DNA from: Minisyncoccota bacterium
GTDB taxonomy: Bacteria > Patescibacteriota > Minisyncoccia > Phycocordibacterales > Phycocordibacteraceae
Assembly (NCBI GenBank): GCA_041666305.1
Contig: JBAYHD010000002.1
Location: 684-64,683, forward strand
DNA: 64,000 nt
Reading direction: 5' to 3'
Shown here: piece after piece, positions 9,744-57,129 of the stretch
How positions within the stretch are numbered: position 1 is the stretch's first letter
Layout: every line of letters starts with the position of its first letter
Translations under genes and position numbers: made by a program
The notes under the pieces: model-generated
What the model was told of the DNA's origin: nothing
Seen by the model: only the letters and a program-made list of their open reading frames with translations
Databases searched by the model: none

Positions 9744-9873
9744 CCGGTAGAACAACATAGCATTGCTCATTGTGTCTAGCGTTAAATATACCTTTGACTT
9801 TCTATGTTTTTATCGGTCTCGAACCTTATTATTCGATTTGAGCGTAGACACGATGCTATGTTGTTCTAACCGG
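9744..9873. mobile_element. structured palindromic repeat element (MITE/Correia-like), copy 1 of 4
   Basis: TIRs CCGGTAGAACAACATAGCAT... / ...ATGCTATGTTGTTCTAACCGG; begins 12 nt after the mnmA stop; same family at 22006, 54208, 56994. Confidence 0.6.
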
Positions 9874-9891
9874 GTGGTATATTATTACCGC

Positions 9892-11259: not shown

Positions 11260-11742
11260 GTGACGGGTATGATGCGATTTTCAACAGAGTCTTTTGTCGC
11301 CGGAGTCATGCTGGGGGCGGTGTTGGTGGGGGCATGGTTTTTCGGCGGAGACATACGTTCACTGCCGTTCGCGTCTTCAGGATTTCTCGCGACGTCCACG
11401 GCATCCTCGTTCCAGGAGAGCGGAGCGGTATCCGTTGTTGATCAGCCGGCTGGTTCCAGCGTTGCGGTTGAATCCGTTACCGTGCCGCCGCCGGGCGTGT
11501 GGGTTGCGGTGCGCGAAGTGAACGGCGTCGATCTCGGCAACGTACTCGGTGCGGCGCGCGTGGTTGGTCCGCACAGCGACGTCATTGTTTCGCTTTTGCG
11601 CCCCACCGAGCCGAAGCGCTCCTACGCGATAGAACTCTACCGTGATGATAATAATGGGGCGTTTGATCCTTCGGCGAACAGCGTGTACGTTGATTTTGAA
11701 ACCGGTGCGCGCGTGGTCTCCTACTTCACGACTACTCAATGA
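11260..11742 (+). CDS. hypothetical secreted protein
   Basis: N-terminal hydrophobic helix; no family recognised. Confidence 0.4.
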   Translation: MTGMMRFSTESFVAGVMLGAVLVGAWFFGGDIRSLPFASSGFLATSTASSFQESGAVSVVDQPAGSSVAVESVTVPPPGVWVAVREVNGVDLGNVLGAARVVGPHSDVIVSLLRPTEPKRSYAIELYRDDNNGAFDPSANSVYVDFETGARVVSYFTTTQ

Positions 11743-12518
11743 GCAAGTATTACAAACCCGACCGTAATCCTGGTTGGAATTATGGCGGGAAGAATTGGCG
11801 TCTTTCACGATCGAAAATCGGTCTTTTTTTAGATTGCGCCCGGTGTTTTTATTTAGATAATAAATTAGGCACAGCTCGGCCGCCGGGGTACCCTTTCAAC
11901 CTGAATTCTGCGGTTGACGCTCTGTTAAAGAAAGAGTTTGATATCCATCGAGTCGGAAAGACAGCACATCCTCTCATGGAGACCTATGGTATTGATGCAA
12001 TACCATTTGAGCACGCAGATTTAGACGTCTGGCGTGAGAACTTTAAAGGAATCGAGATAACTCATGAACCGACCGGATTCAGAATTTCAGGAGCGATAGA
12101 TGATGTGTGGGTCAAGCCTGATGGCGAGCTTGTAATTGTTGATTATAAATCGACAAGCAAAGAGCAGAGGATAGAAGCCTTGGACGAGGAGTGGCATGAC
12201 GGCTATAAACGCCAAATGGAAACATACCAGTGGCTGTTCCGACAAAGCGGATTTAAAGTATCCAATACGGGCTATTTCGTATATGCCAATGCCGATAAAG
12301 ATAAGAAAGCATTTGATGGGGTTCTTACCTTTGAATTGACACTCATACCCTATGAAGGCAATGACTCTTGGGTGGAGTACACTCTCAGAGATATTAAAAC
12401 CTGTCTGGACAGCGACGCGATACCTGATGCGTATCCTGACTGCGACTATTGCCGGTATCGTACTGTCGCCGGAACGAAGCTGCTCGCTCTTCATAAAGAT
12501 ACCAAGGGGAAGGAATAG
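11739..12518 (+). CDS. Cas4/RecB-like PD-(D/E)xK nuclease with Fe-S cysteine cluster
   Basis: N-terminal CARCFYL Cys, IVDYKST (D-x-K) core, C-terminal CDYCRY cysteines; AT-rich relative to neighbours. Confidence 0.6.
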   Translation: MSKYYKPDRNPGWNYGGKNWRLSRSKIGLFLDCARCFYLDNKLGTARPPGYPFNLNSAVDALLKKEFDIHRVGKTAHPLMETYGIDAIPFEHADLDVWRENFKGIEITHEPTGFRISGAIDDVWVKPDGELVIVDYKSTSKEQRIEALDEEWHDGYKRQMETYQWLFRQSGFKVSNTGYFVYANADKDKKAFDGVLTFELTLIPYEGNDSWVEYTLRDIKTCLDSDAIPDAYPDCDYCRYRTVAGTKLLALHKDTKGKE

Positions 12519-12528
12519 AATACTGCGT

Positions 12529-12786
12529 ATGAAAAGCCTGTTTGCCGAACGTGTCCGAGATATAGTTCGCCAAATCCCGAAAGGGCAAACACTTTCATAT
12601 ATGAGAGTAGCCGCTATTGCTGGCAATCCTGGCGCCGCGCGAGCTGTGGGCACGGTGATGAAAAATAATTTTGACCCGCTGGTGCCGTGCCATCGCGTCG
12701 TCCGCGCTGACGGGAAGGTGGGCGATTATAATCGCGGCGGTGAACGAGCGAAGAAGCGCTTGTTAGAGAAAGAAGGCGCATTATGA
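12529..12786 (+). CDS. MGMT-family protein (methylated-DNA--protein-cysteine methyltransferase DNA-binding domain, PCHRV)
   Basis: PCHRVV active-site motif and YGxIA/NP signature; track ORF 12352 overlaps upstream gene, internal Met 12529 used. Confidence 0.6.
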   Translation: MKSLFAERVRDIVRQIPKGQTLSYMRVAAIAGNPGAARAVGTVMKNNFDPLVPCHRVVRADGKVGDYNRGGERAKKRLLEKEGAL

Positions 12787-13451
12787 ATGTAAAAATAGAT
12801 CCGTCATGGGCGAGGCACTTGAAGGGCGAATTTGAAAAGGCTTATTTTGAAGAGCTGACGAGATTCGTGAAGAATGAATACAAAAACGGCGCCGTGTACC
12901 CAGCGCCGAAGAATATTTTTCGTGCATTCGACCTGTGCCCGTTCGAAAAAGTGAAAGTGGTTATCCTCGGACAGGACCCGTACCACGGCGTTCGTCAGGC
13001 GAACGGCCTCGCGTTCGCCGTGGAGAGCACCGAGAAAATTCCACCGTCGCTTCAAAATATTTTTAAAGAAATTGAGAGCGATCTTCACGGGCCGCTTGTG
13101 CATGCAGACGGCGACCTCTCGCGCTGGGCGAAACAGGGCGTGTTGCTCCTCAATGCAACACTCACCGTGCGAGCCGGCATAGCCGGCTCGCACCAGGAGA
13201 AGGGGTGGGAGCAATTTACCGACGCTGTCATCAAAGCGCTTTCGGAGGAACACGAACATCTCGTTTTTATGCTCTGGGGCAATTATGCGAAGGCGAAGGG
13301 CGCACACATCGACCGCAGTAAGCACCTCGTGCTTGAAGCTCCGCATCCCTCGCCATTCTCCGCCGCCTCCGGCTTTTTCGGCTGTAAGCACTTCTCTAAA
13401 GCAAATGACTACCTCGTCGCTCACAACGAAACCCCGATAGACTGGTTGTGA
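12783..13451 (+). CDS. ung: uracil-DNA glycosylase (family 1)
   Basis: [19 protein letters not shown] motifs; full length 222 aa. Confidence 0.85.
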   Translation: MNVKIDPSWARHLKGEFEKAYFEELTRFVKNEYKNGAVYPAPKNIFRAFDLCPFEKVKVVILGQDPYHGVRQANGLAFAVESTEKIPPSLQNIFKEIESDLHGPLVHADGDLSRWAKQGVLLLNATLTVRAGIAGSHQEKGWEQFTDAVIKALSEEHEHLVFMLWGNYAKAKGAHIDRSKHLVLEAPHPSPFSAASGFFGCKHFSKANDYLVAHNETPIDWL

Positions 13452-13492
13452 ATATGCGATTGTAAAACGGCACGCTCCTGTATACTCACACT

Positions 13493-13996
13493 ATGAAGAA
13501 AATAGTTTGGTGGATTTTAGGAATTACCCTCCTATCATATGTCGCTATCCGTATAGCCCCTGAGCTTTTCGTTTTCTTTGGTCAATTACTTGTTTTGCTA
13601 CCACTTCTGCTACCCATTTATGGTGTGTACTGGTATATGAAAAGGCCAAGGAAACAAAATATGACTCAGATTTCAACAAATTCATTACCGAATCAGGAAA
13701 GAAGTCCTATAAACAAGACTCTAGAAGTCGTTGGTGTGGGCTTCATGTACTTCTTTTTTATCGGTATGGGTCTAATGAATATGGCCAATTGTCGAGGAAA
13801 TGAATGTGACACATTCACAACATCTTTTGCCTTGGGCTGTATATGGTTGATAATCAGTCTTCTTGGTTTCGTCTATACTGTGTACATGAACGGATCATCT
13901 ACCAACAAGTGGTTACTGGTATTTAAACCTTACATCGCACTTCCAATTTTCTTTGCCATAATCTTTATGGGTCAACCACTGATAAGTGGTTACTAA
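13493..13996 (+). CDS. hypothetical integral membrane protein (AT-rich insert)
   Basis: 4-5 predicted TM helices; strongly AT-rich vs flanks; lies between ung and a duplicated ung 3' fragment. Confidence 0.45.
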   Translation: MKKIVWWILGITLLSYVAIRIAPELFVFFGQLLVLLPLLLPIYGVYWYMKRPRKQNMTQISTNSLPNQERSPINKTLEVVGVGFMYFFFIGMGLMNMANCRGNECDTFTTSFALGCIWLIISLLGFVYTVYMNGSSTNKWLLVFKPYIALPIFFAIIFMGQPLISGY

Positions 13997-14029
13997 ATTG
14001 GATCGGAAAGTCAGACTTTCCGGAAATTC

Positions 14030-14374
14030 GACGGAGATTTAACACGATGGGCCGAGCAGGGCGTATTGCTCCTCAATGCCACGCTCACCGTGCGAGCCGG
14101 CATAGCCGGCTCGCACCAGGAGAAGGGGTGGGAACAATTCACCGATGCCGTTATCAAGGCACTCTCAGAAGAGCGCGAGCATCTCGTTTTCATGCTCTGG
14201 GGCAATTATGCGAAGGCGAAGGGCGCACACATCGACCGCAGTAAGCACCTCGTGCTTGAAGCTCCGCACCCCTCGCCATTCTCCGCCGCATCCGGCTTTT
14301 TCGGGTGCAAACATTTCAGCCGTGCGAACGAGTATCTTATTTCCCACAACGAAACCCCCATCGACTGGCTCTAG
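14030..14374 (+). pseudogene. orphan duplicate of the ung 3' half (about 115 codons, no proper start)
   Basis: aligns to ung 13107-13451 at roughly 90% nt identity with mostly synonymous differences (e.g. gacctctcgcgc vs gatttaacacga both DL(S/T)R); opens directly after the stop of the 13493 gene in the same frame. Confidence 0.7.
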
Positions 14375-14417
14375 CTACTTGGAGGCGAGGCCTCCAAGTA
14401 GGCCCCCAAGTAGCTAG
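14375..14417 (+). other. strong hairpin with alternative pairing
   Basis: ctacttggaggc-gag-gcctccaagtag perfect 12-bp stem; downstream ccaagtagctag can pair alternatively with ctagctacttgg (14371-14382). Confidence 0.5.
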
Positions 14418-14495
14418 ATTGATAAGTTCAAGAAGTAGGCGTAAAATCGCGGAGGTTCAAATCGTTGTTTCCATTAACGTTCTTGGGAGTCAGAC

Positions 14496-15248
14496 ATGCA
14501 AAAATTGAAGCAGGAAGCGGCGGCAAATCTTGCGGCGCTTGCACGGAATCCTTATCCGGGTCGCGTCATCATCATTGGTTTGGACCAAAAGGGCGAGAAC
14601 TTGGTTCAGGTCTATGCCATCATGGGTCGGAGCGAAAACAGCCGAAATCGCGTCTTCGGATACGAGGGCGGAAGAGTTTTCACCGAAGCCGCAAATCCGG
14701 CAAAAATGAAAGACCCGCGGCTGGTGATCTACAACGCCATGCGCGAGGTTTTGGTCCCAGGCATGGACAGCACCATGAACGTCGTCAGCAACGGCGATCA
14801 GACTGACAAAGTCGCCGATGGCTACAAGGAGGACAAGAGTTTCCAAGCGACGTTGAGCCAGTGCAAATATGAACCGGATGCTCCGAACTTCACTCCGCGC
14901 ATCACGGCGTCCAGCTACTGGCTCCGCAGCGGGAAGCCCGTCGGCCTCATGTCTTTGTTGCGTAAGTCGCCGTGGAGCGACGAATGCGATCGGCATTTGC
15001 ACGAAATCAACGGCTTCGGCCAGGGTTTCGGGCATTGTCTCACCACGTACCTGGGGGACGGCGATCCGTTGCCGGCATATCGCGGCGAGCCGCGTCTGAT
15101 GCCGCTTCTGGGCGACCTCGATTGGATCGCCGATATGTACTGGGAAATGCTGGACCCGGGCAACCGCGTGTCGCTCGCGGTGAAGTTCATTCCGCGGCTC
15201 GGTCTTTCAAGCACGGTCATCAGGAATCAGTATTCGAAAGTAGCCTGA
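14496..15248 (+). CDS. IMP cyclohydrolase-like protein (archaeal PurO family, tentative)
   Basis: N-terminal YPGRVIIIGLD...VYAIMGRSENSRNRVF resembles PurO; assignment from memory of family motifs only. Confidence 0.4.
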   Translation: MQKLKQEAAANLAALARNPYPGRVIIIGLDQKGENLVQVYAIMGRSENSRNRVFGYEGGRVFTEAANPAKMKDPRLVIYNAMREVLVPGMDSTMNVVSNGDQTDKVADGYKEDKSFQATLSQCKYEPDAPNFTPRITASSYWLRSGKPVGLMSLLRKSPWSDECDRHLHEINGFGQGFGHCLTTYLGDGDPLPAYRGEPRLMPLLGDLDWIADMYWEMLDPGNRVSLAVKFIPRLGLSSTVIRNQYSKVA

Positions 15249-22005: not shown

Positions 22006-22135
22006 CCGGTAGAACAACATGGCATCGTGTCTTTTGCTCCCAACAATGCAATGTCAACAAAGGCTTGTTGCTCCGGAAATTTTGATGGATAAATGGACCA
22101 TGACACAAGGAGCAATGCCATGTTGTTCTCACCGG
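22006..22135. mobile_element. structured palindromic repeat element, copy 2 of 4
   Basis: TIRs CCGGTAGAACAACATGGCAT / ATGCCATGTTGTTCTCACCGG; flanked by perfect direct repeat GTTGAC (22000-22005 and 22136-22141). Confidence 0.65.
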
Positions 22136-22197
22136 GTTGACGGCTTTTCGGATACCTGCTAGATTGATGTGGTAACTGCACTGGTAATGAATAGCAA

Positions 22198-26610: not shown

Positions 26611-26696
26611 TGGTGACGTGGCAGAGCGGTCTATTGCACTCTTCTTAGGAGAGAGCGGTCTGTGTAGGGCCCGCGGGTTCGAATCCCGCCGTCACC
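26611..26696 (+). tRNA. tRNA-Leu (anticodon TAG), long variable arm
   Basis: acceptor GGTGACG/CGTCACC, anticodon loop cuUAGga, T-arm GGTTCGAATCC; CCA not encoded; TGGTATACT extended -10 about 125 nt upstream. Confidence 0.8.
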
Positions 26697-26739
26697 GCTA
26701 GTTATACACAGGGCTTGATTTACGCATCTTGCCGGTGGT

Positions 26740-26915: not shown

Positions 26916-26944
26916 AGAGCAAGAAACGGGGACACCCACCATTA

Positions 26945-26990
26945 ATTTCCAAACAAAAACCTCGCGTCATGCCCCGGGCGACAGGGATCC
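26945..26990 (+). repeat. island direct repeat (a): AATTTCCAAACAAAAACCTCGCGTCATGCCCCGGGCGACAGGGATCC
   Basis: five same-orientation copies at 26945, 27538, 27681, 29505, 30172. Confidence 0.65.
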
Positions 26991-27000
26991 TGATGGGGAG

Positions 27001-27519
27001 TTATTCCAGATTGTTCAAATAGCACCTAATGTCGGCACTCGACTTCAAGACAATTACTTTATCTTTGTGCTCATTAATAAATAGCATCAGTTTCGGTTTG
27101 GTTCTAAATTGGCGACGAATAATCTCGAGGAAGAAGGCAATCTCGTGTCGGATATTAAGCTCCGGATGTCTCTCCGACGGATTGAATATGCGCTGAGCGT
27201 GATTAAACAATCTGCGCCAAAGCGGAATGTCGAGAAAAATAATGACGTCGGCCCTTTTTGCGATTTCTGGTTGCACAGAACGCGTGTATAAACCGTCGGA
27301 GACCCACGAGTCTGCAGCAATCGCAGTTGCCGTCTTTTGCCTAACGAAGGTTCGCACTCGGTCGCGCTCTTCAATGGGGGCACCATCCTTCATCTGATTT
27401 CCGCCCGCCTCGAACCAGAATCGGTCGAGGTGGATGTGTGGTATAGATAATTTTTCACTAATCGCTCGCGCGAGAGTAGATTTCCCGCTCGCGGGTAACC
27501 CAACAATGCTTATACGCAT
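27001..27519 (-). CDS. P-loop NTPase / nucleotide kinase-like protein (FlaR/adenylate-kinase-like)
   Basis: Walker A GLPASGKST close to N-terminus (start taken at MRISIVG); bracketed by direct repeats (a) and (b); only minus-strand gene in island. Confidence 0.55.
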   Translation of the reverse strand: MRISIVGLPASGKSTLARAISEKLSIPHIHLDRFWFEAGGNQMKDGAPIEERDRVRTFVRQKTATAIAADSWVSDGLYTRSVQPEIAKRADVIIFLDIPLWRRLFNHAQRIFNPSERHPELNIRHEIAFFLEIIRRQFRTKPKLMLFINEHKDKVIVLKSSADIRCYLNNLE

Positions 27520-27537
27520 TGCGTAAGAATACATTAA

Positions 27538-27580
27538 ATAATTCCCAAACAAAAACCTCGCGTCATGCCCCGGCGACCTT
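27538..27580 (+). repeat. island direct repeat (b)
   Basis: ATTCCCAAACAAAAACCTCGCGTCATGCCCCGGCGACC. Confidence 0.65.
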
Positions 27581-27601
27581 CCGTCTCAGTGAAGGTAGTA
27601 T

Positions 27602-27637
27602 GTTCGTTAACTCTAACGGTCGTATCAATTAACGAAC
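27602..27637. repeat. conserved hairpin GTTCGTTAA-N18-TTAACGAAC with AACGGTCGT loop core (copy A)
   Basis: perfect 9-bp stem; near-identical second copy at 35800-35835. Confidence 0.55.
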
Positions 27638-27680
27638 AGCAGATTGCCTACGCTGCGCAAGGTTCGACCTTTCTCAAAAT

Positions 27681-27726
27681 AATTTCCAAACAAAAACCTC
27701 GCGTCATGTCCCCGGCGACAGGGGTC
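27681..27726 (+). repeat. island direct repeat (c)
   Basis: AATTTCCAAACAAAAACCTCGCGTCATGTCCCCGGCGACAGGGG. Confidence 0.65.
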
Positions 27727-27824
27727 TAGAGCAGGAGTATTTGACTGAATGACTTAAGAGCATATGATTCCAGTCAGACACACAAGTAGTTCCCACCAAT
27801 GCTTGCAGACAGAAGGAGTTCGTC

Positions 27825-28313
27825 ATGAACAGTTCTATTAGTCCAAAAAAGCTTCGTCATGCCATAAATCAGTATTTCGATCAGACCCCGGCCACTGAGG
27901 TCGTGCGACGTGCAGAAGAACTGAAGCCGCAGGAGATGAAGTCTAGGGAAATGGTACTGTTTGGACCTCCCGGCCTCGTCGCCAAGGTATACAAAACGTT
28001 CAAGATCGACTGCGACGGAAACGTGATTTTCGACGGCATCCGCATTGCCGGATTGAGCATCAAGCTTCCGAAGGGAAGGATCAATGATATACACTGCCGT
28101 TTGCGCCTGCACCACCCGGAGACGGGAGACTTGTTCGAGACGACTGGCTACGTTTCAGACGCGTTCGTGTACGAGGTGTTGCAGTGTTGGGATGGCAAAG
28201 ATACCGTGACCATCGCCGGCAAGAAGATGGTGCATCAACCAGTTCGTGGCAATTCTGTGCCCCAGCAGTATTACTTGCTGGTTGAGGTCATAGAGGATAC
28301 ATCGCCGTTCTAA
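27825..28313 (+). CDS. hypothetical protein
   Basis: ORF with protein-like composition; no family recognised. Confidence 0.4.
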   Translation: MNSSISPKKLRHAINQYFDQTPATEVVRRAEELKPQEMKSREMVLFGPPGLVAKVYKTFKIDCDGNVIFDGIRIAGLSIKLPKGRINDIHCRLRLHHPETGDLFETTGYVSDAFVYEVLQCWDGKDTVTIAGKKMVHQPVRGNSVPQQYYLLVEVIEDTSPF

Positions 28314-28450
28314 AGCCGTTCGCAGAAGTCCGTTCTGCGAACGGCTTTTGCTTTTTGAGGTTCAACCTTGCTAAAAAACAGTCGATTCTCGAACTGTGAT
28401 ATATTCGGCTCTAGAAAGTCCCGCAACCAATAGAAAAGGAGGTAGTTAGT

Positions 28451-28849
28451 ATGGCAACGAGAGAAGCGGCATCTGGCCGCATCCAGATACTCAAGACACC
28501 AGCTTGGGACGCTCCACTTGAGGCCCGCGGAGCGTTTGTGATGAAAGCAGCGCTTCCGTGTTATCCGTATGTCGGGTATCCGTCCGGCGTAGTGAGGGAC
28601 GTCGTGACTCGCAGGGAAATGGAGATCAAGAAAATAGGCGTCATCGTGCCGCAGGACAAAGCATTACAGGTCCTCTGGCAGAATAATCCGGTGGCGGCCA
28701 CATGGTGGATAGACCGCGGCTTCCCGAAACGCAGAGGATGCTTTTTCTTCACTGAAGGCGAGTTCACCATCGTCAGCGGCGTCCCCGATGATCCGGTATG
28801 GGTTTTTGAGAACATACGGGTTGGGCACTGGCGCCAAATGCTCCCCTGA
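28451..28849 (+). CDS. hypothetical protein
   Basis: ORF preceded by aaaggaggtag RBS; no family recognised. Confidence 0.45.
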   Translation: MATREAASGRIQILKTPAWDAPLEARGAFVMKAALPCYPYVGYPSGVVRDVVTRREMEIKKIGVIVPQDKALQVLWQNNPVAATWWIDRGFPKRRGCFFFTEGEFTIVSGVPDDPVWVFENIRVGHWRQMLP

Positions 28850-29023
28850 AAGCGACGTGCGACGAGACGGAAAGGGTCTTCCTTTCCGTCTTTTTTGTTT
28901 TTAGCCCTCTCCACGTCTGATGCAGAAACAGTTGACAATAATATATTCTTGTGCTATATATGGAGGCAAGACTGGCGACTCAGGCTTGTCGCGTTCATTC
29001 AATCAATCAAGGGAGAAAAAATT

Positions 29024-29455
29024 ATGGTAAATCCTGACGCATTCTTCAGGAATTCTTTCGCTCAATTCAGAATTACGCTCCGCAATCTGCTCGGGAGGCA
29101 TGGGGTCTTAACCAATCCCGGCTCGAACGATGATGAAATAGTAGCTGGCTTCGAGGAGCTTCTTGCGCGGCGGCAAACCGAATTGGACGAAGGCAATCTG
29201 ATCTTCATCACCGAGGCACTGATGATGTTCCATATGCGGATTGCCTACAACACACCTTCGTTTGCAGTAAATTTTGTTTGCGCAAAAGCAACAGACGAAA
29301 TGACACAAGAAGCTCTTCGCAAACTCTTGCGTGTGAGTCTTCAAGACCCAAGATTCCGAGAGCGATTCAACGAGCATTTCTCGAAACACCCAATGCAAGA
29401 ATTCCGTGAGGAAGGATGGAAATGGTTATGTGAGATCTTAGCTTGGGAAACGTGA
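29024..29455 (+). CDS. hypothetical protein
   Basis: start at MVNPDAFF after gggagaaaaaatt RBS-like stretch (track ORF begins 28895); followed by terminator. Confidence 0.35.
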   Translation: MVNPDAFFRNSFAQFRITLRNLLGRHGVLTNPGSNDDEIVAGFEELLARRQTELDEGNLIFITEALMMFHMRIAYNTPSFAVNFVCAKATDEMTQEALRKLLRVSLQDPRFRERFNEHFSKHPMQEFREEGWKWLCEILAWET

Positions 29456-29500
29456 GTTCCGCCCTCAACGAAAACCGTTGGAGGGCGGTTTTCATTTTTA
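29455..29500 (+). terminator. rho-independent terminator
   Basis: ccgccctcaacgaaaaccgttggagggcgg then TTTTCATTTTT. Confidence 0.65.
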
Positions 29501-29504
29501 GGCT

Positions 29505-29546
29505 CAACACAAAAAACTCGCGTCATTCCCCCGGCGACAGGGATCC
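29505..29546 (+). repeat. island direct repeat (d)
   Basis: CAACACAAAAAACTCGCGTCATTCCCCCGGCGACAGGGATCC immediately after terminator. Confidence 0.6.
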
Positions 29547-29654
29547 TCAGTCGAGTAGAGGGGCTTGACTTACATACTGTTTCGTAGTATCGTACGCACA
29601 GAGGTTTCTTCTCTACCTTAAAGAGACGCCCTTTTCCAGAATGAAGGAGAGATC

Positions 29655-30116
29655 ATGCATCAGTATGTCACCTGCACTAAATGCAACGGGTCCGGCAGAG
29701 TAAGGAGAACCAGATGGTTCGGGACGAAAGACTGTCCCTCCTGCGACGGCATAGGGAAAGTTCCCAAAGCCGTTACCAAGGCAACGTCGGTAAGAAGGAC
29801 CGAAGAACGGGCCGTAACCCACTCCGCTCCGGCAAATGACGACGGCGATATCATCGCGGGCGTGGCGCTCATGGTTGCGGCTTTAGACCGCGGGAATACC
29901 ATCGCGGTTGCGCAGCCCGAAGAAGCTTTCAAAGGTGGCGGCGGCGAAATGGGCGGTGGCGGAGCTAGCGACTCATGGGATAAACCCGAGGAGCGCGCGG
30001 CAGAACCGGAGCCTGTTGCGGAAGTCGTTACGACGTTCGAATCAAGCGAACCCGCGTCAGAATCGGCCGCTTCAGATTCTTCAAGTTCATCGGACTCGGG
30101 ATCAAGCGACACGTGA
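29655..30116 (+). CDS. zinc-ribbon protein (CxxC x2, DnaJ-finger-like CxxCxGxG) with acidic Ser-rich disordered tail
   Basis: CTKCNGSGRV...CPSCDGIGKV; aaggagagatc RBS; C-terminal SDSSSSSDSGSSDT. Confidence 0.45.
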   Translation: MHQYVTCTKCNGSGRVRRTRWFGTKDCPSCDGIGKVPKAVTKATSVRRTEERAVTHSAPANDDGDIIAGVALMVAALDRGNTIAVAQPEEAFKGGGGEMGGGGASDSWDKPEERAAEPEPVAEVVTTFESSEPASESAASDSSSSSDSGSSDT

Positions 30117-30120
30117 ACGG

Positions 30121-30172
30121 CCGCCTCAGCAGTAACGGGAAAACCGTGCTTGCTGAGGCGGTTTTCTTTTTG
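30121..30172 (+). terminator. rho-independent terminator
   Basis: ccgcctcagc...gctgaggcgg then TTTTCTTTTT. Confidence 0.65.
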
Positions 30173-30215
30173 TCCCAATTTCCAAACAAAAACCTCACTT
30201 CATGCTCTGGCGATA
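30172..30215 (+). repeat. island direct repeat (e), most diverged
   Basis: AATTTCCAAACAAAAACCTCACTTCATGCTCTGGCGATATTCC. Confidence 0.5.
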
Positions 30216-30365
30216 TTCCTCAACCCATCTCTGTTGAAATTAGACTTCAACAAGGGGTGGGAATGATTATCCACAGGCCTCCCAGGACACTTGACAAATC
30301 ATGTTCGCTATGCTAGCCTGTACACAGGTCAAACCAGCTTTCCAACCATCTCTGCGGAGGTAGCG

Positions 30366-54207: not shown

Positions 54208-54340
54208 CCGGTAGGACAACTTGGCATCAGGTTTTTGCTTCGTACAACATTCAATCACGTTTCCATTGGTAAGAAGCCATAAACAAGATCCCTTGCCAAA
54301 ACAAACTATCCCCAGAAGCAATGCCAAGTAGTCCTCACCG
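54208..54340. mobile_element. structured palindromic repeat element, copy 3 of 4 (with compensatory arm changes)
   Basis: TIRs CCGGTAGGACAACTTGGCAT / ATGCCAAGTAGTCCTCACCGG; flanking CGTTGC at 54202-54207 and 54342-54347. Confidence 0.65.
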
Positions 54341-54380
54341 GGCGTTGCCGTAGAGGTGCGGCACGACTATACTGAGACCA

Positions 54381-56993: not shown

Positions 56994-57127
56994 CCGGTAG
57001 GACAACATGGCATCGTGTCGTCTTTGCTCCAGTCGTGAGCAGGGCAACAAGCGTTCGTTGCCATTCGTACGTTTTAAACATTATGGAGATGCTGACACAT
57101 GGAGTAATGCCATGTTGTCCTCACCGG
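56994..57127. mobile_element. structured palindromic repeat element, copy 4 of 4
   Basis: TIRs CCGGTAGGACAACATGGCAT / ATGCCATGTTGTCCTCACCGG; begins 6 nt after the mraY stop and ends 2 nt before the ftsW ATG. Confidence 0.65.
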
Positions 57128-57129
57128 GT

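Follow-up and report, generated by a model that had tools for sequence, protein, structure and literature searches.

The window analysed here, a stretch of 64,000 nt with a GC content of 0.528, comes from a tiny groundwater bacterium that is Kaiserbacteria-like (Paceibacterota). Within it, a repair cluster composed of a Cas4-like nuclease gene (pdd), an ogt-like gene and an intact uracil-DNA glycosylase gene (ung, copy A) is followed by a small AT-rich membrane protein gene (mem), a truncated second copy of ung (copy B), a palindromic segment and an IMP cyclohydrolase-like gene (imp), as listed in Table 1. A preliminary description of this DNA had pointed out the complete ung, the AT-rich membrane gene and the ung 3' copy, and ORF calling, Pfam searches and alignment recover each of them.

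Table 1. Features of the ung locus, with positions counted from the first nucleotide of the window.
Feature	Position	Strand	Remarks
pdd, Cas4-like PD-(D/E)XK nuclease gene	11739-12518	+	PF12705; GC 0.453
ogt-like gene, 6-O-methylguanine-DNA methyltransferase DNA-binding domain	12529-12786	+	PF01035, 98.6 bits
ung copy A	12783-13451	+	PF03167, 65.3 bits; intact family-1 uracil-DNA glycosylase, 222 aa
Part of copy A aligning ungapped to copy B	13107-13451	+	291/345 identical
Copy A/B identity tract 1	13161-13210	+	50 nt, partner 14084-14133
Copy A/B identity tract 2	13269-13345	+	77 nt, partner 14192-14268
ung-mem spacer	13452-13492	+	41 nt, promoter-like motif (by eye)
mem, small AT-rich membrane protein gene	13493-13996	+	167 aa, GC 0.379
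Illegitimate junction	13996/13997	.	last base of the mem TAA, then first base of the ung-derived fragment
ung copy B, truncated xenolog	13997-14374	+	PF03167 partial, 39.7 bits; codon ~101 to stop
Palindromic segment	14375-14417	+	12-bp perfect hairpin and second CCAAGTAG, CTAG-flanked
Promoter-like site for imp	14419-14447	+	TTGATA-17-TAAAAT, 10/12
imp, IMP cyclohydrolase-like gene	14496-15248	+	PF07826, 125 bits

Anatomy of the locus

The pdd-ogt-ung block is conserved, with synteny of ogt in most relatives. The pdd gene is only 50-53% identical to that of the clade matching all other genes of the region at 77-83%, and 75-85% identical to that of a different clade (L113, L051 and L140). On these comparisons pdd itself is a xenolog, which marks the repair cluster as prone to recombination.

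Copy A covers positions 2-140 of the PF03167 profile, with a score to be read against a cut-off of 24.3 bits, and its translation carries both ILGQDPYHG, which includes the catalytic water-activating GQDPYH, and the HPSPFS intercalation loop; it thus combines the whole-domain score with the two motifs that define family-1 UNGs. The UNGs of Kaiserbacteria are 85-89% identical to it. Both of its halves are closest to L085 and L128, with no visible chimerism or discontinuity, and its loop is of the short type LHGPLVHADGDL, as in L005 and L085.

The 545 nt separating the two copies hold a single ORF, mem (GC3 0.395), whose product displays about five hydrophobic segments, a conserved Cys pair and a PY[IL]ALPIF motif. 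A search of 5.8 billion proteins returned only mem itself, an ORFan, and no family was assigned by Pfam, PHROG(s) or PADLOC either to mem or to the cargo protein found at the equivalent place in Methylosinus sporium. The sole homologue of mem encountered, P0008 of the L155 species, shares 34% identity with it in a MAFFT alignment and also lies directly downstream of ung, which answers the suggestion made in the preliminary description to look for the same gene beside ung elsewhere. In the spacer preceding mem, TTGTAA-N15-TATACT ends 5 nt before the ATG; it was seen by eye only and is absent from the output of the consensus scan because its hexamers are 15 nt apart. A spacer of 43 nt occupies the same place between ung and mem in L155/L167. 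A hairpin at the 3' end of the insert (14004-14022) is ung loop coding sequence common with L105 and gives no significant fold (z = -1.3); neither this hairpin nor the promoter-like sequence is repeated elsewhere within the window.

Copy B aligns without gaps to copy A at an offset of 923 nt, over the interval 14030-14374 originally assigned to it; its start, however, lies further upstream, directly after the TAA of mem. The segment GAAAGTCAGACTTTC (14006-14020) is identical to ung loop codons of L105 at 15 of 15 nt and in register (shuffling test, P < 0.0005). Since ung homology runs upstream of 14030, the fragment spans 13997-14374. These additional 33 nt code for the hypervariable loop of ung, here of the L105-like ESQTF type. 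At 13996/13997 the sequence passes abruptly from mem coding sequence to 18 residues that read as ung loop of the L105/L114/L019 type, and this is the single junction without homology.

The match of copy B to PF03167 is confined to profile positions 44-140. It contains HPSPFS and an intact frame, continues in frame from the mem stop codon, and has neither a promoter nor an ATG start codon nor the GQDPYH region; the missing start codon and the shared frame had both been correctly read in the preliminary description. Lacking the GQDPYH half, copy B cannot be an active enzyme, and with neither a start codon nor the catalytic N-terminal half it is non-functional. The agreement in frame between cargo ORF and fragment, seen in both long cases known (see below), is compatible with chance, L155 being out of frame. 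A 102-aa ORF called here as "uracil-DNA glycosylase" lies in the fragment. Copy B shows no rare residues at conserved positions and keeps the family-consensus residues; from this lack of degenerative substitutions it is probably recent.

The palindromic segment that follows folds at -30.9 kcal/mol (z = -3.7) and, because CCAAGTAG is present twice, could adopt an alternative stem, in line with the two stems described initially. It has no second occurrence in the window or in any ung locus compared, and it is extra relative to L005, L085, L091 and L118, in which the imp promoter comes directly after the ung stop codon; the intergenic sequence with this promoter is homologous in L085, L005 and L118. 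Rfam searches gave no match in the 12-16 kb region and two tRNAs only in the whole window. The signature of an integron cassette, namely an attC palindrome together with IntI/attI, is not seen here, the sole 3' hairpin being ung coding sequence and no recombinase having been found.

Divergence and exchange between the two copies

Over their 345 ungapped nucleotides the copies are 84.3% identical, and not about 90% as first estimated, a value (90.1%) that holds only for a BLAST core of 273 nt. They differ at 42 of 114 codons, with 35 synonymous codon changes and seven amino-acid replacements, all conservative and none at rare or surface-defining positions; the early count of about 8 changes in some 115 residues was thus slightly high, and its verdict that the differences are few and mostly synonymous or conservative stands. 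The dN/dS ratio, proposed at that stage as a check, amounts to 0.056 (NG86; pS 0.51, pN 0.047) and is not near 1. In the 219 nt that are divergent, pS reaches 0.81 (saturated) and pN 0.073. With saturated synonymous sites and differing loops, the data support the view, already expressed in the preliminary description, that purifying selection in separate lineages probably shaped the divergence of the 3' halves, which did not arise by a recent in situ duplication.

The divergence is strongly uneven. The two identity tracts comprise 16 and 25 consecutive identical codons (P ~1e-4 by permutation), and no exact repeat shared by the copies is longer than the second tract; within the tracts, other species peak at 88-92% identity, with medians of 67-76%. 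In the divergent segments the copies are 76.1% identical to each other, versus 81.5% between copy A and L094 and 82.0% between copy B and L005, these being short segments. Because they are less alike outside the tracts than each is to the ung of other species, an outcome of the comparison with relatives recommended at the outset, the copies are best described as xenologs with later exchange. The tracts themselves are interpreted, from their sequence, as products of gene conversion or as a patchy recombination tract. A rare motif, AGIAG, is common to both copies. The 5' end of copy B uses AT-richer codons (GC3 0.59 vs 0.82), GC3 being non-discriminating as to which copy is native.

Layouts in other genomes and searches for an element

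The two arrangements that meet in the window exist separately in relatives: ung followed by mem in the L155/L167-L175 species, and ung followed by imp ("type I") in L085, L005, L031 and L091, and also, with the homologous intergenic promoter, in L118.

The complete architecture recurs in Methylosinus sporium with a repeat period of 896 bp, as compared with 923 bp in the window, and it is present in the isolate genome of strain DSM 17706. In M. sporium L082 copy B measures at least 338 nt; L178, a sister strain at 95.5% identity, retains only 88 nt, and copies A and B of the two strains show an N-G/A-Y polymorphism in swapped arrangement. The cargo proteins of the window and of M. sporium are different, unrelated ORFan membrane proteins; searches with the latter, encoded by a 121-aa gene, gave only near-identical or partial matches, none with ung context. 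Shorter ung-derived remnants, with the ung stop codon as their anchor, were found in L159 (27 nt), L155 (15 nt) and L096 (15 nt). The IDWL* remnants correspond to a permissive 15-nt pattern, with 3 found versus ~0.3 expected. The fragment lengths at the six loci are hence 378, at least 338, 88, 27, 15 and 15 nt, L082 and L178 differing by 355 nt.

Only two long fragments occur among ~170 ung loci, and both (window and L082) begin close to where the variable loop starts, at codon ~101-103. In the window, L155 and L178, ung-derived sequence lies within 0-3 nt of the cargo stop codon. No gene other than ung has adjacent fragment copies in these loci. A shared boundary at "codon 109" was considered as the mark of a site-specific insertion and rejected, copy B running on into a different loop type; this edge is only the point at which homology ceases to be recognisable because of the hypervariable loop. 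A 100-nt spacer in L082 was likewise examined as decayed ung and gave no significant result (P 0.23). The qualification of ung as an integration hotspot in the preliminary description is only partly borne out, in that fragments or remnants recur in Kaiserbacteria-like and Methylocystaceae loci, but it does not extend to E. coli, where none was found in 5,426 genomes.

No mobile-element machinery was detected. Searching with E. coli XerD by phmmer, we obtained no match in 666 ORFs of the window and 7,783 ORFs of the ung loci (170 loci with ±5 kb flanks, 1.27 Mb in all), with a positive control that worked; this query covers tyrosine recombinases that are not very divergent. No integrase appeared among the best 25 of 93 Pfam families matched by 119 representatives of the ORFs downstream of ung, and no larger element was seen at the ung site in ~170 loci. 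When phage and plasmid collections were searched with ung by tblastn, almost only full-length genes were retrieved and no attP-like fragment beside an integrase was listed; a scan of viral contigs yielded two ordinary ung genes. Nothing relevant was found in the literature on ung as an attB site. Neither a donor, nor an empty-site or hybrid ung allele of this strain, nor a circle was encountered in the collections searched, in which the protein clusters had a single member.

Origin of the locus and its implications

We favour, with a probability of about 0.6, the reading of this locus as the scar of a recombinational DNA import in a recombination-prone repair cluster, and not as a new type of mobile element. 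Import is preferred because a lone small ORF is all that the insert holds, the XerD searches of the window and the ung loci gave no tyrosine recombinase, the hairpin is ung coding sequence and the fragment lengths vary. Of the two origins offered in the preliminary description, recombinational import anchored in or near ung is therefore the better fit. Two layouts, one in which pdd and ung are followed by mem and one in which ung is followed by imp, HAD, M13 and alaS, would have been fused through a homologous exchange that left no seam, together with an illegitimate joint at 13996/13997, and the locus does show a homology-free junction on one side and a seamless homologous transition on the other. 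The product would be a complete ung A, mem and the back half, from codon ~101 to the stop, of an ung B of another lineage. The route may have been homology-facilitated illegitimate recombination of taken-up DNA, which assumes natural transformation of this organism, or an ends-in (Campbell-type) insertion-duplication. We infer the pathway, and the recipient may have had either layout, with ung-mem DNA entering an ung-imp genome or DNA with a truncated ung and imp entering an ung-mem genome. Afterwards the direct repeats would have exchanged sequence, yielding the two perfectly identical tracts, and copy B would still be young, such fragments being later whittled away by deletion. Two observations count against the scar: random illegitimate joints would not be expected to yield fragments that start at the loop edge and abut the cargo stop codon, and a more specific mechanism could lie behind them.

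The mechanisms behind this scenario are well known. Homology-facilitated illegitimate recombination accompanies natural transformation in Acinetobacter, Streptococcus pneumoniae and Pseudomonas stutzeri (PMC3240628), transformation with diverged DNA leaves discontinuous, mosaic donor patches (PMC13344027), and RecA exchange at ~23% divergence is established (PMC6382021). Like the window, the first process combines one homologous exchange with one illegitimate joint, needs no element-encoded recombinase and places a gene-sized insertion by a conserved anchor gene; unlike it, the event here is deduced from a natural scar and not observed, and the truncated anchor-gene copy that has been kept is long. 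Campbell-type insertion-duplication, the single crossover of a circle carrying a 3' gene fragment as in insertion-duplication mutagenesis, likewise leaves a whole gene followed by inserted DNA and then by a directly repeated 3' fragment that has no promoter, and recombination between the repeats reverses the product; in contrast, the window presents a case of natural origin, in which neither vector nor circle was detected and the arms share ~76-84% identity instead of being identical.

Genomic islands, ICEs and IMEs enter tRNA or protein genes at the 3' end, which they restore, and the CIMEs of Streptococcus thermophilus are integrase-less derivatives of such islands. The window resembles them in its intact target and in a displaced 3' fragment forming a direct repeat beyond compositionally deviant DNA, but it differs by the absence of an integrase, of a conserved core and of a fixed crossover, by an insert of 545 nt, and by a repeat of 345-378 nt that is diverged throughout and varies in length between sister strains. 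In Neisseria, silent partial-gene pilS cassettes serve for gene conversion of pilE. The likeness lies in a promoterless partial 3' copy that adjoins an expressed gene, with exchange tracts; the differences lie in the single copy present here, in differences that are nearly all synonymous or conservative, in the lack of any sign of programmed variation and in the loss of the fragment in relatives.

Among the alternatives, the least unlikely is an integrase-less cassette, made of an ung 3' arm, a spacer, a small gene and another ung 3' arm, for which ung would be the landing pad; it would leave as a ~0.9-kb circle by RecA acting on the direct repeats, or in linear form, and enter a resident ung by Campbell-type recombination. 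It would account for an anatomy that is exactly that of insertion-duplication, for the similar periods in two phyla, for cargoes that are different ORFan membrane proteins, for a mem family known from no position other than after ung, where ung-derived sequence adjoins its stop codon in both lineages, for the foreign loop and low GC3 of the 5' end of copy B, as if it travelled with the insert, and for the exchange between repeats. However, no circle, empty site or hybrid allele is on record and the protein clusters are single-member, long cases number two among ~170 loci, arms of such low identity are poor for RecA, the cargoes of the two phyla are unrelated, copy A is coherent, both halves having the same closest relatives, and the fragments decay instead of being maintained. 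The wider proposal that the ung 3' half is a landing pad for one-gene cassettes of this kind, spreading as ~0.9-kb circles among CPR and even Methylocystaceae, is slightly more doubtful; it would turn the loop-edge start, the abutment on the cargo stop and the ~900-bp period into hallmarks of an element, not coincidences.

Comparably doubtful is a site-specific cassette that targets ung and brings its own replacement 3' end, with a recombinase acting in trans or as a CIME-like remnant. What stands of this idea, also put forward in the preliminary description, is the intact target with its 3'-derived direct repeats (345 nt ungapped, 378 nt ung-derived) flanking foreign DNA, to which are added the recurrence in two phyla, where the fragments start a few codons apart, the excess of stop-anchored remnants in L096, L155 and L159, and the restriction of adjacent fragment copies to ung. 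Against it, no recombinase was found in the insert, the window or the ung flanks examined, no larger element was seen in ~170 loci, and a same crossover point with a short identical core is contradicted by lengths that differ between lineages and sister strains. Moreover, the common boundary at codon 109 reduces to an effect of the variable loop on homology, the hairpin proposed for the cassette belongs to the ung coding sequence, and the 5,426 E. coli genomes searched are devoid of such fragments.

Two further explanations are very improbable. A partial tandem duplication of ung in situ, followed by neutral decay or by upkeep through conversion, is suggested by repeats 923 bp apart, by the two perfect tracts and by AGIAG in both copies, but neutrality of one copy should give a dN/dS of ~0.5 or more, copy B retains consensus residues alongside saturated synonymous sites, the copies are not mutual closest relatives outside the tracts (76% vs 81-82%), the loop types differ, and the foreign membrane gene between the copies is unexplained. 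Hardly better is the notion that copy B is a silent conversion donor varying the C-terminal half of Ung, for example against phage Ung inhibitors. Copy B is indeed promoterless, in frame and undecayed beside an expressed gene, with conversion-like tracts in the window and the swapped polymorphism of M. sporium strains; yet there is one cassette only, the fragment is deleted in sister lineages, and variation is not concentrated in amino-acid-changing positions, with 7 conservative replacements in 114 residues versus 35 synonymous changes. The really different part, the loop, is moreover not transferable by conversion, as it sits at the edge of copy B without 5' homology. Least credible of all is an assembly artefact joining strain variants, a concern raised by the metagenomic source, with data sets ERZ27249449 and JGI 3300037810, by the ability of repeats to mislead assemblers and by the preliminary description itself, since the ENA megahit k141 contig, the JGI contig and the 129.7-kb NCBI MAG contig agree (100% and 99.99%), the longest exact repeat (77 nt) is shorter than k = 141, a unique 545 nt separates the copies and an isolate, M. 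sporium DSM 17706, has the same architecture.

For annotation, the 102-aa "uracil-DNA glycosylase" ORF is a warning, being a pseudogene fragment. If recombinase-free cassettes with ung arms did exist, they would offer genes a novel and very simple way to move, for which a cultured methanotroph could serve as a test system. Under the scar reading that we prefer, the pdd-ogt-ung cluster would be a recombination hotspot, with pdd replaced, ung partly doubled and the downstream genes variable. The locus would then offer a clean, datable case of gene-sized foreign DNA entering a streamlined CPR genome without mobile-element machinery, and would illustrate the fate of a leftover gene fragment, which conversion homogenises first and deletion removes later.

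The ung locus and its neighbourhood

The preliminary description, made from the sequence alone, reported a complete ung gene (copy A) followed by an AT-rich gene for a putative membrane protein (mem) and a copy of the ung 3' half (copy B), and all three are present. The GC content of mem is 0.379 (GC3 0.395) versus 0.528 for the window; copy B has no ATG and lies in frame with the TAA of mem, as described. The source is a Kaiserbacteria-like bacterium within Candidatus Paceibacterota. Matching structures were found at 100% and 99.99% in an ENA megahit contig, a JGI contig and a 129.7-kb NCBI MAG contig. Since these three assemblies are concordant and the longest exact A/B repeat is 77 nt, mis-assembly, the alternative then raised, is very unlikely. 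The ORF publicly annotated as a glycosylase within copy B is a fragment devoid of the catalytic half and is to be treated as a pseudogene.

Features of the ung locus and repeats elsewhere in the window
Feature	Coordinates	Strand	Remarks
pdd, Cas4-like PD-(D/E)XK nuclease gene	11739-12518		upstream of ogt-ung
ung copy A, family-1 uracil-DNA glycosylase, complete	12783-13451	+	222 aa; PF03167, 65.3 bits; GQDPYH and HPSPFS motifs
Hypervariable ung loop	13083-13115		ung codons ~101-111 in all loci
mem, AT-rich ORF	13493-13996	+	167 aa; ~5 hydrophobic segments
Copy B, repeat of the ung 3' half aligning without gaps	14030-14374	+	923 bp 3' of the matching part of A
ORF named 'uracil-DNA glycosylase' (JGI)	14066-14374		TTG start; 102 aa
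Palindrome	14375-14417		perfect 12-bp hairpin
Promoter and leader (…GTTCAAATCGTTGTTTCCATTAACGTT…)	14419-14495		5' of imp; leader about 50 nt; also in L085, L005, L118, L091
Intergenic repeat (AATTTCCAAACAAAAACCTCGCGTCATGCCCCGGGCGACAGGG...), 43-59 nt, five copies	26943, 27539, 27680, 29499, 30177 (26943-30219)		among small ORFs, just 3' of tRNA gene (26612-26697)
37-nt motif (TGACACAAGGAGCAATGCCATGTTGTTCTCACCGGGT), four copies	9839-9875, 22101-22137, 54307-54343, 57093-57129		at least one copy just 5' of a membrane-protein start

Scans of genomes and metagenomes provided about 160 ung loci (L numbers) for comparison. Gene by gene, the window belongs with the clade of L005, L007 and L014 (mnmA, the ATP-cone/Mrr gene, the methyltransferase-like gene ogt, the M13 peptidase gene and alaS 77-83% identical; ung segments 78-94%). 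The AT-richer pdd (GC 0.453) is 50-53% identical to this clade and 75-85% to another (L113, L051, L140), and is by these identities a xenolog, likewise replaced.

Gene content 3' of ung is highly variable among relatives. In L085 (closest ung, 89%), L005, L031, L091 and L118, a conserved promoter and leader directly follow the ung stop and precede imp, the IMP cyclohydrolase gene; in the window the same sequence lies 3' of copy B, behind the extra 43-nt palindrome. In all 14 contigs of the L155 species, which are alike, a mem homologue lies 43 nt 3' of ung; its product, the sole known homologue, is 34% identical and likewise has the PY[IL]ALPIF motif and the paired Cys residues. Given these two arrangements, the window is a fusion of 'ung→mem' and 'ung→imp' layouts. 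The imp leader, which had no match in Rfam, could be a regulatory leader.

The palindrome (-30.9 kcal/mol, z = -3.7) contains a duplicated CCAAGTAG permitting alternative pairing, in agreement with the two stems first noticed. It is unique, has CTAG on its flanks and is absent from relatives, where the imp promoter directly adjoins the ung stop; it is probably a terminator-like insertion of the ung→imp layout. In L105, a perfect 22-bp hairpin (-48.7 kcal/mol) lies immediately 3' of ung; in L096, a perfect 19-bp palindrome separates ung from a 15-nt remnant of the ung terminus. Elsewhere in the window, the slightly AT-richer stretch with the five-copy repeat could represent a small island that carries regulatory cassettes in several copies.

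Divergence and extent of the ung fragment

Copies A and B are 84.3% identical (291/345 nt), the earlier figure of ~90% applying only to the 273-nt BLAST core (90.1%); they differ at 42/114 codons and at 7/114 residues, where about 8 had been counted. The dN/dS is 0.056 (Nei-Gojobori), and the foreign origin under purifying selection proposed at the outset is borne out. Differences are unevenly distributed, leaving two perfectly identical tracts, one of 16 codons (50 nt) and the other of 25 (77 nt) (permutation P about 1e-4), for which identity in other species does not exceed 88-92% (median 67-76%). Outside the tracts (about 222 nt), A/B identity is 76.1%, below that of A to L094 (81.5%) and of B to L005 (82.0%), both from other species, and synonymous sites are saturated (pS 0.81; pN 0.073). 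H157 in copy A is the one rare residue at a conserved position; copy B has none and therefore appears free of decay. This divergence pattern and the undecayed B rule out an in situ duplication in which one copy was neutral, and the preliminary rejection of a recent duplication stands. The copies are xenologs with recent exchange between repeats or, equivalently, as a patchy recombination product, a known pattern (PMC13344027).

Just 5' of the conserved GDL(S/T)RWA motif, ung genes encode a hypervariable loop that falls into several discrete types, which differ in length and sequence and have insertions of up to >20 residues (e.g. L122, L155). Copy A has the common type, LHGPLVHADGDL, and the peptide upstream of 14030 in the frame of B resembles the type of L105, L114 and L019 (…CESQTFTNKNGDL). 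There, GAAAGTCAGACTTTC (14006-14020) equals L105 DNA at 15/15 nt in the same register, 12 nt 5' of GGAGAT (P<0.0005, shuffling), and ATTGGATCG matches ATCGGATCG (D-I-G-S) of L019 and L114. This loop match places the start of B not at 14030, as first described, but at 13997, so that B runs to 14374, from about codon 101 to the stop, abutting the mem stop codon. A/B homology ends at 13107/14030 only through the differing loop types, and 13996/13997 is therefore the sole non-homologous junction of the locus. A hairpin 3' of mem, considered as a cassette terminator, was rejected, since it is ung coding sequence; its fold is not significant.

Recurrence and decay in other genomes

The architecture recurs in the isolate genome of Methylosinus sporium DSM 17706 (L082), where ung is followed by an unrelated ORFan (121 aa, Cys-rich, two TM) and, at offset 896, by a fragment of the ung 3' part, with 1 mismatch/260 nt in the centre of the repeat and both ends diverged. 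In a 95.5% identical sister strain (L178), the fragment is reduced to its final 88 nt, directly 3' of the cargo stop, and an N-G/A-Y polymorphism is swapped between intact gene and fragment. Three Kaiserbacteria-like contigs carry copies of the ung terminus (…IDWL*) of 27, 15 and 15 nt, preceded by inserts of 385 nt, 451 nt (the mem homologue) and 60 nt, with about 0.3 matches expected by chance. The mirror image of the window's 3' fragment occurs in a Methylocystis MAG (L061, 1-700): 1.15 kb 5' of the complete gene, next to where an IS5-like transposase ORF ends, lies a 5' fragment of ung that covers aa 1-41 (62% identical) and is closed by a stop. When all loci (1.27 Mb) were compared with themselves, no gene but ung had fragment copies beside it, and all 5,426 complete Escherichia coli genomes have exactly one ung place. 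Such fragments thus recur in these lineages but are no universal feature. They resemble short-lived remains that are shortened from their 5' end, with the stretch nearest the downstream promoter apparently the last to be lost.

Methylocystis/Methylosinus UNGs (L054, L061, L065, L067-L069, L072-L074, L076, L078, L080-L083; Alphaproteobacteria) are 68-70% identical to the window's CPR UNG and among the best 80 genome matches, a pattern suggesting that this type of ung has been transferred between phyla. At the intercalating position, CPR UNGs have Phe (HPSPFS) and those of Methylocystaceae have Leu. In L032 (5001-5108), ung is apparently frameshifted near its 5' end.

Origin of the locus

A recombination scar is the best-supported reading, with a probability of about 0.6. 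The foreign DNA, derived from a related species, would have been taken in via one homologous exchange and one illegitimate joint, as known for homology-facilitated illegitimate recombination (PMC3240628), or via an ends-in (Campbell-type) single crossover, with a complete ung, mem and a truncated ung of xenologous origin as the outcome. The two tracts would have been exchanged between the repeats at the event or later. Either polarity would serve, [ung-mem] entering an ung-imp genome or [ung'-imp] an ung-mem genome.

Of the two origins initially proposed, recombinational import is favoured over a mobile cassette. A recombinase-free cassette with ung arms, spread by host recombination, is doubtful, and a site-specific cassette mobilised in trans slightly more so. 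Both are kept alive by the fragment start near the beginning of the loop and the period of about 900 bp in both long cases (window and L082), and by ung-derived sequence 0-3 nt after the cargo stop codon in three lineages. No dedicated machinery is apparent: phmmer with E. coli XerD found no XerD-like recombinase in 666 window ORFs or 7,783 ung-locus ORFs (an ung query gave 172 matches). The insert could accommodate no more than one small ORF, the cargo proteins matched no Pfam, PHROG or PADLOC family, the insert ends are not repeated elsewhere in the window, and no locus examined has a large element interrupting ung or lying between ung and a remnant. Each of three further readings is highly improbable: in situ duplication, a silent cassette of the pilS type, and an assembly artefact.

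The locus would thus be a new instance of an already known kind of event, the more novel cassette reading being improbable but testable.
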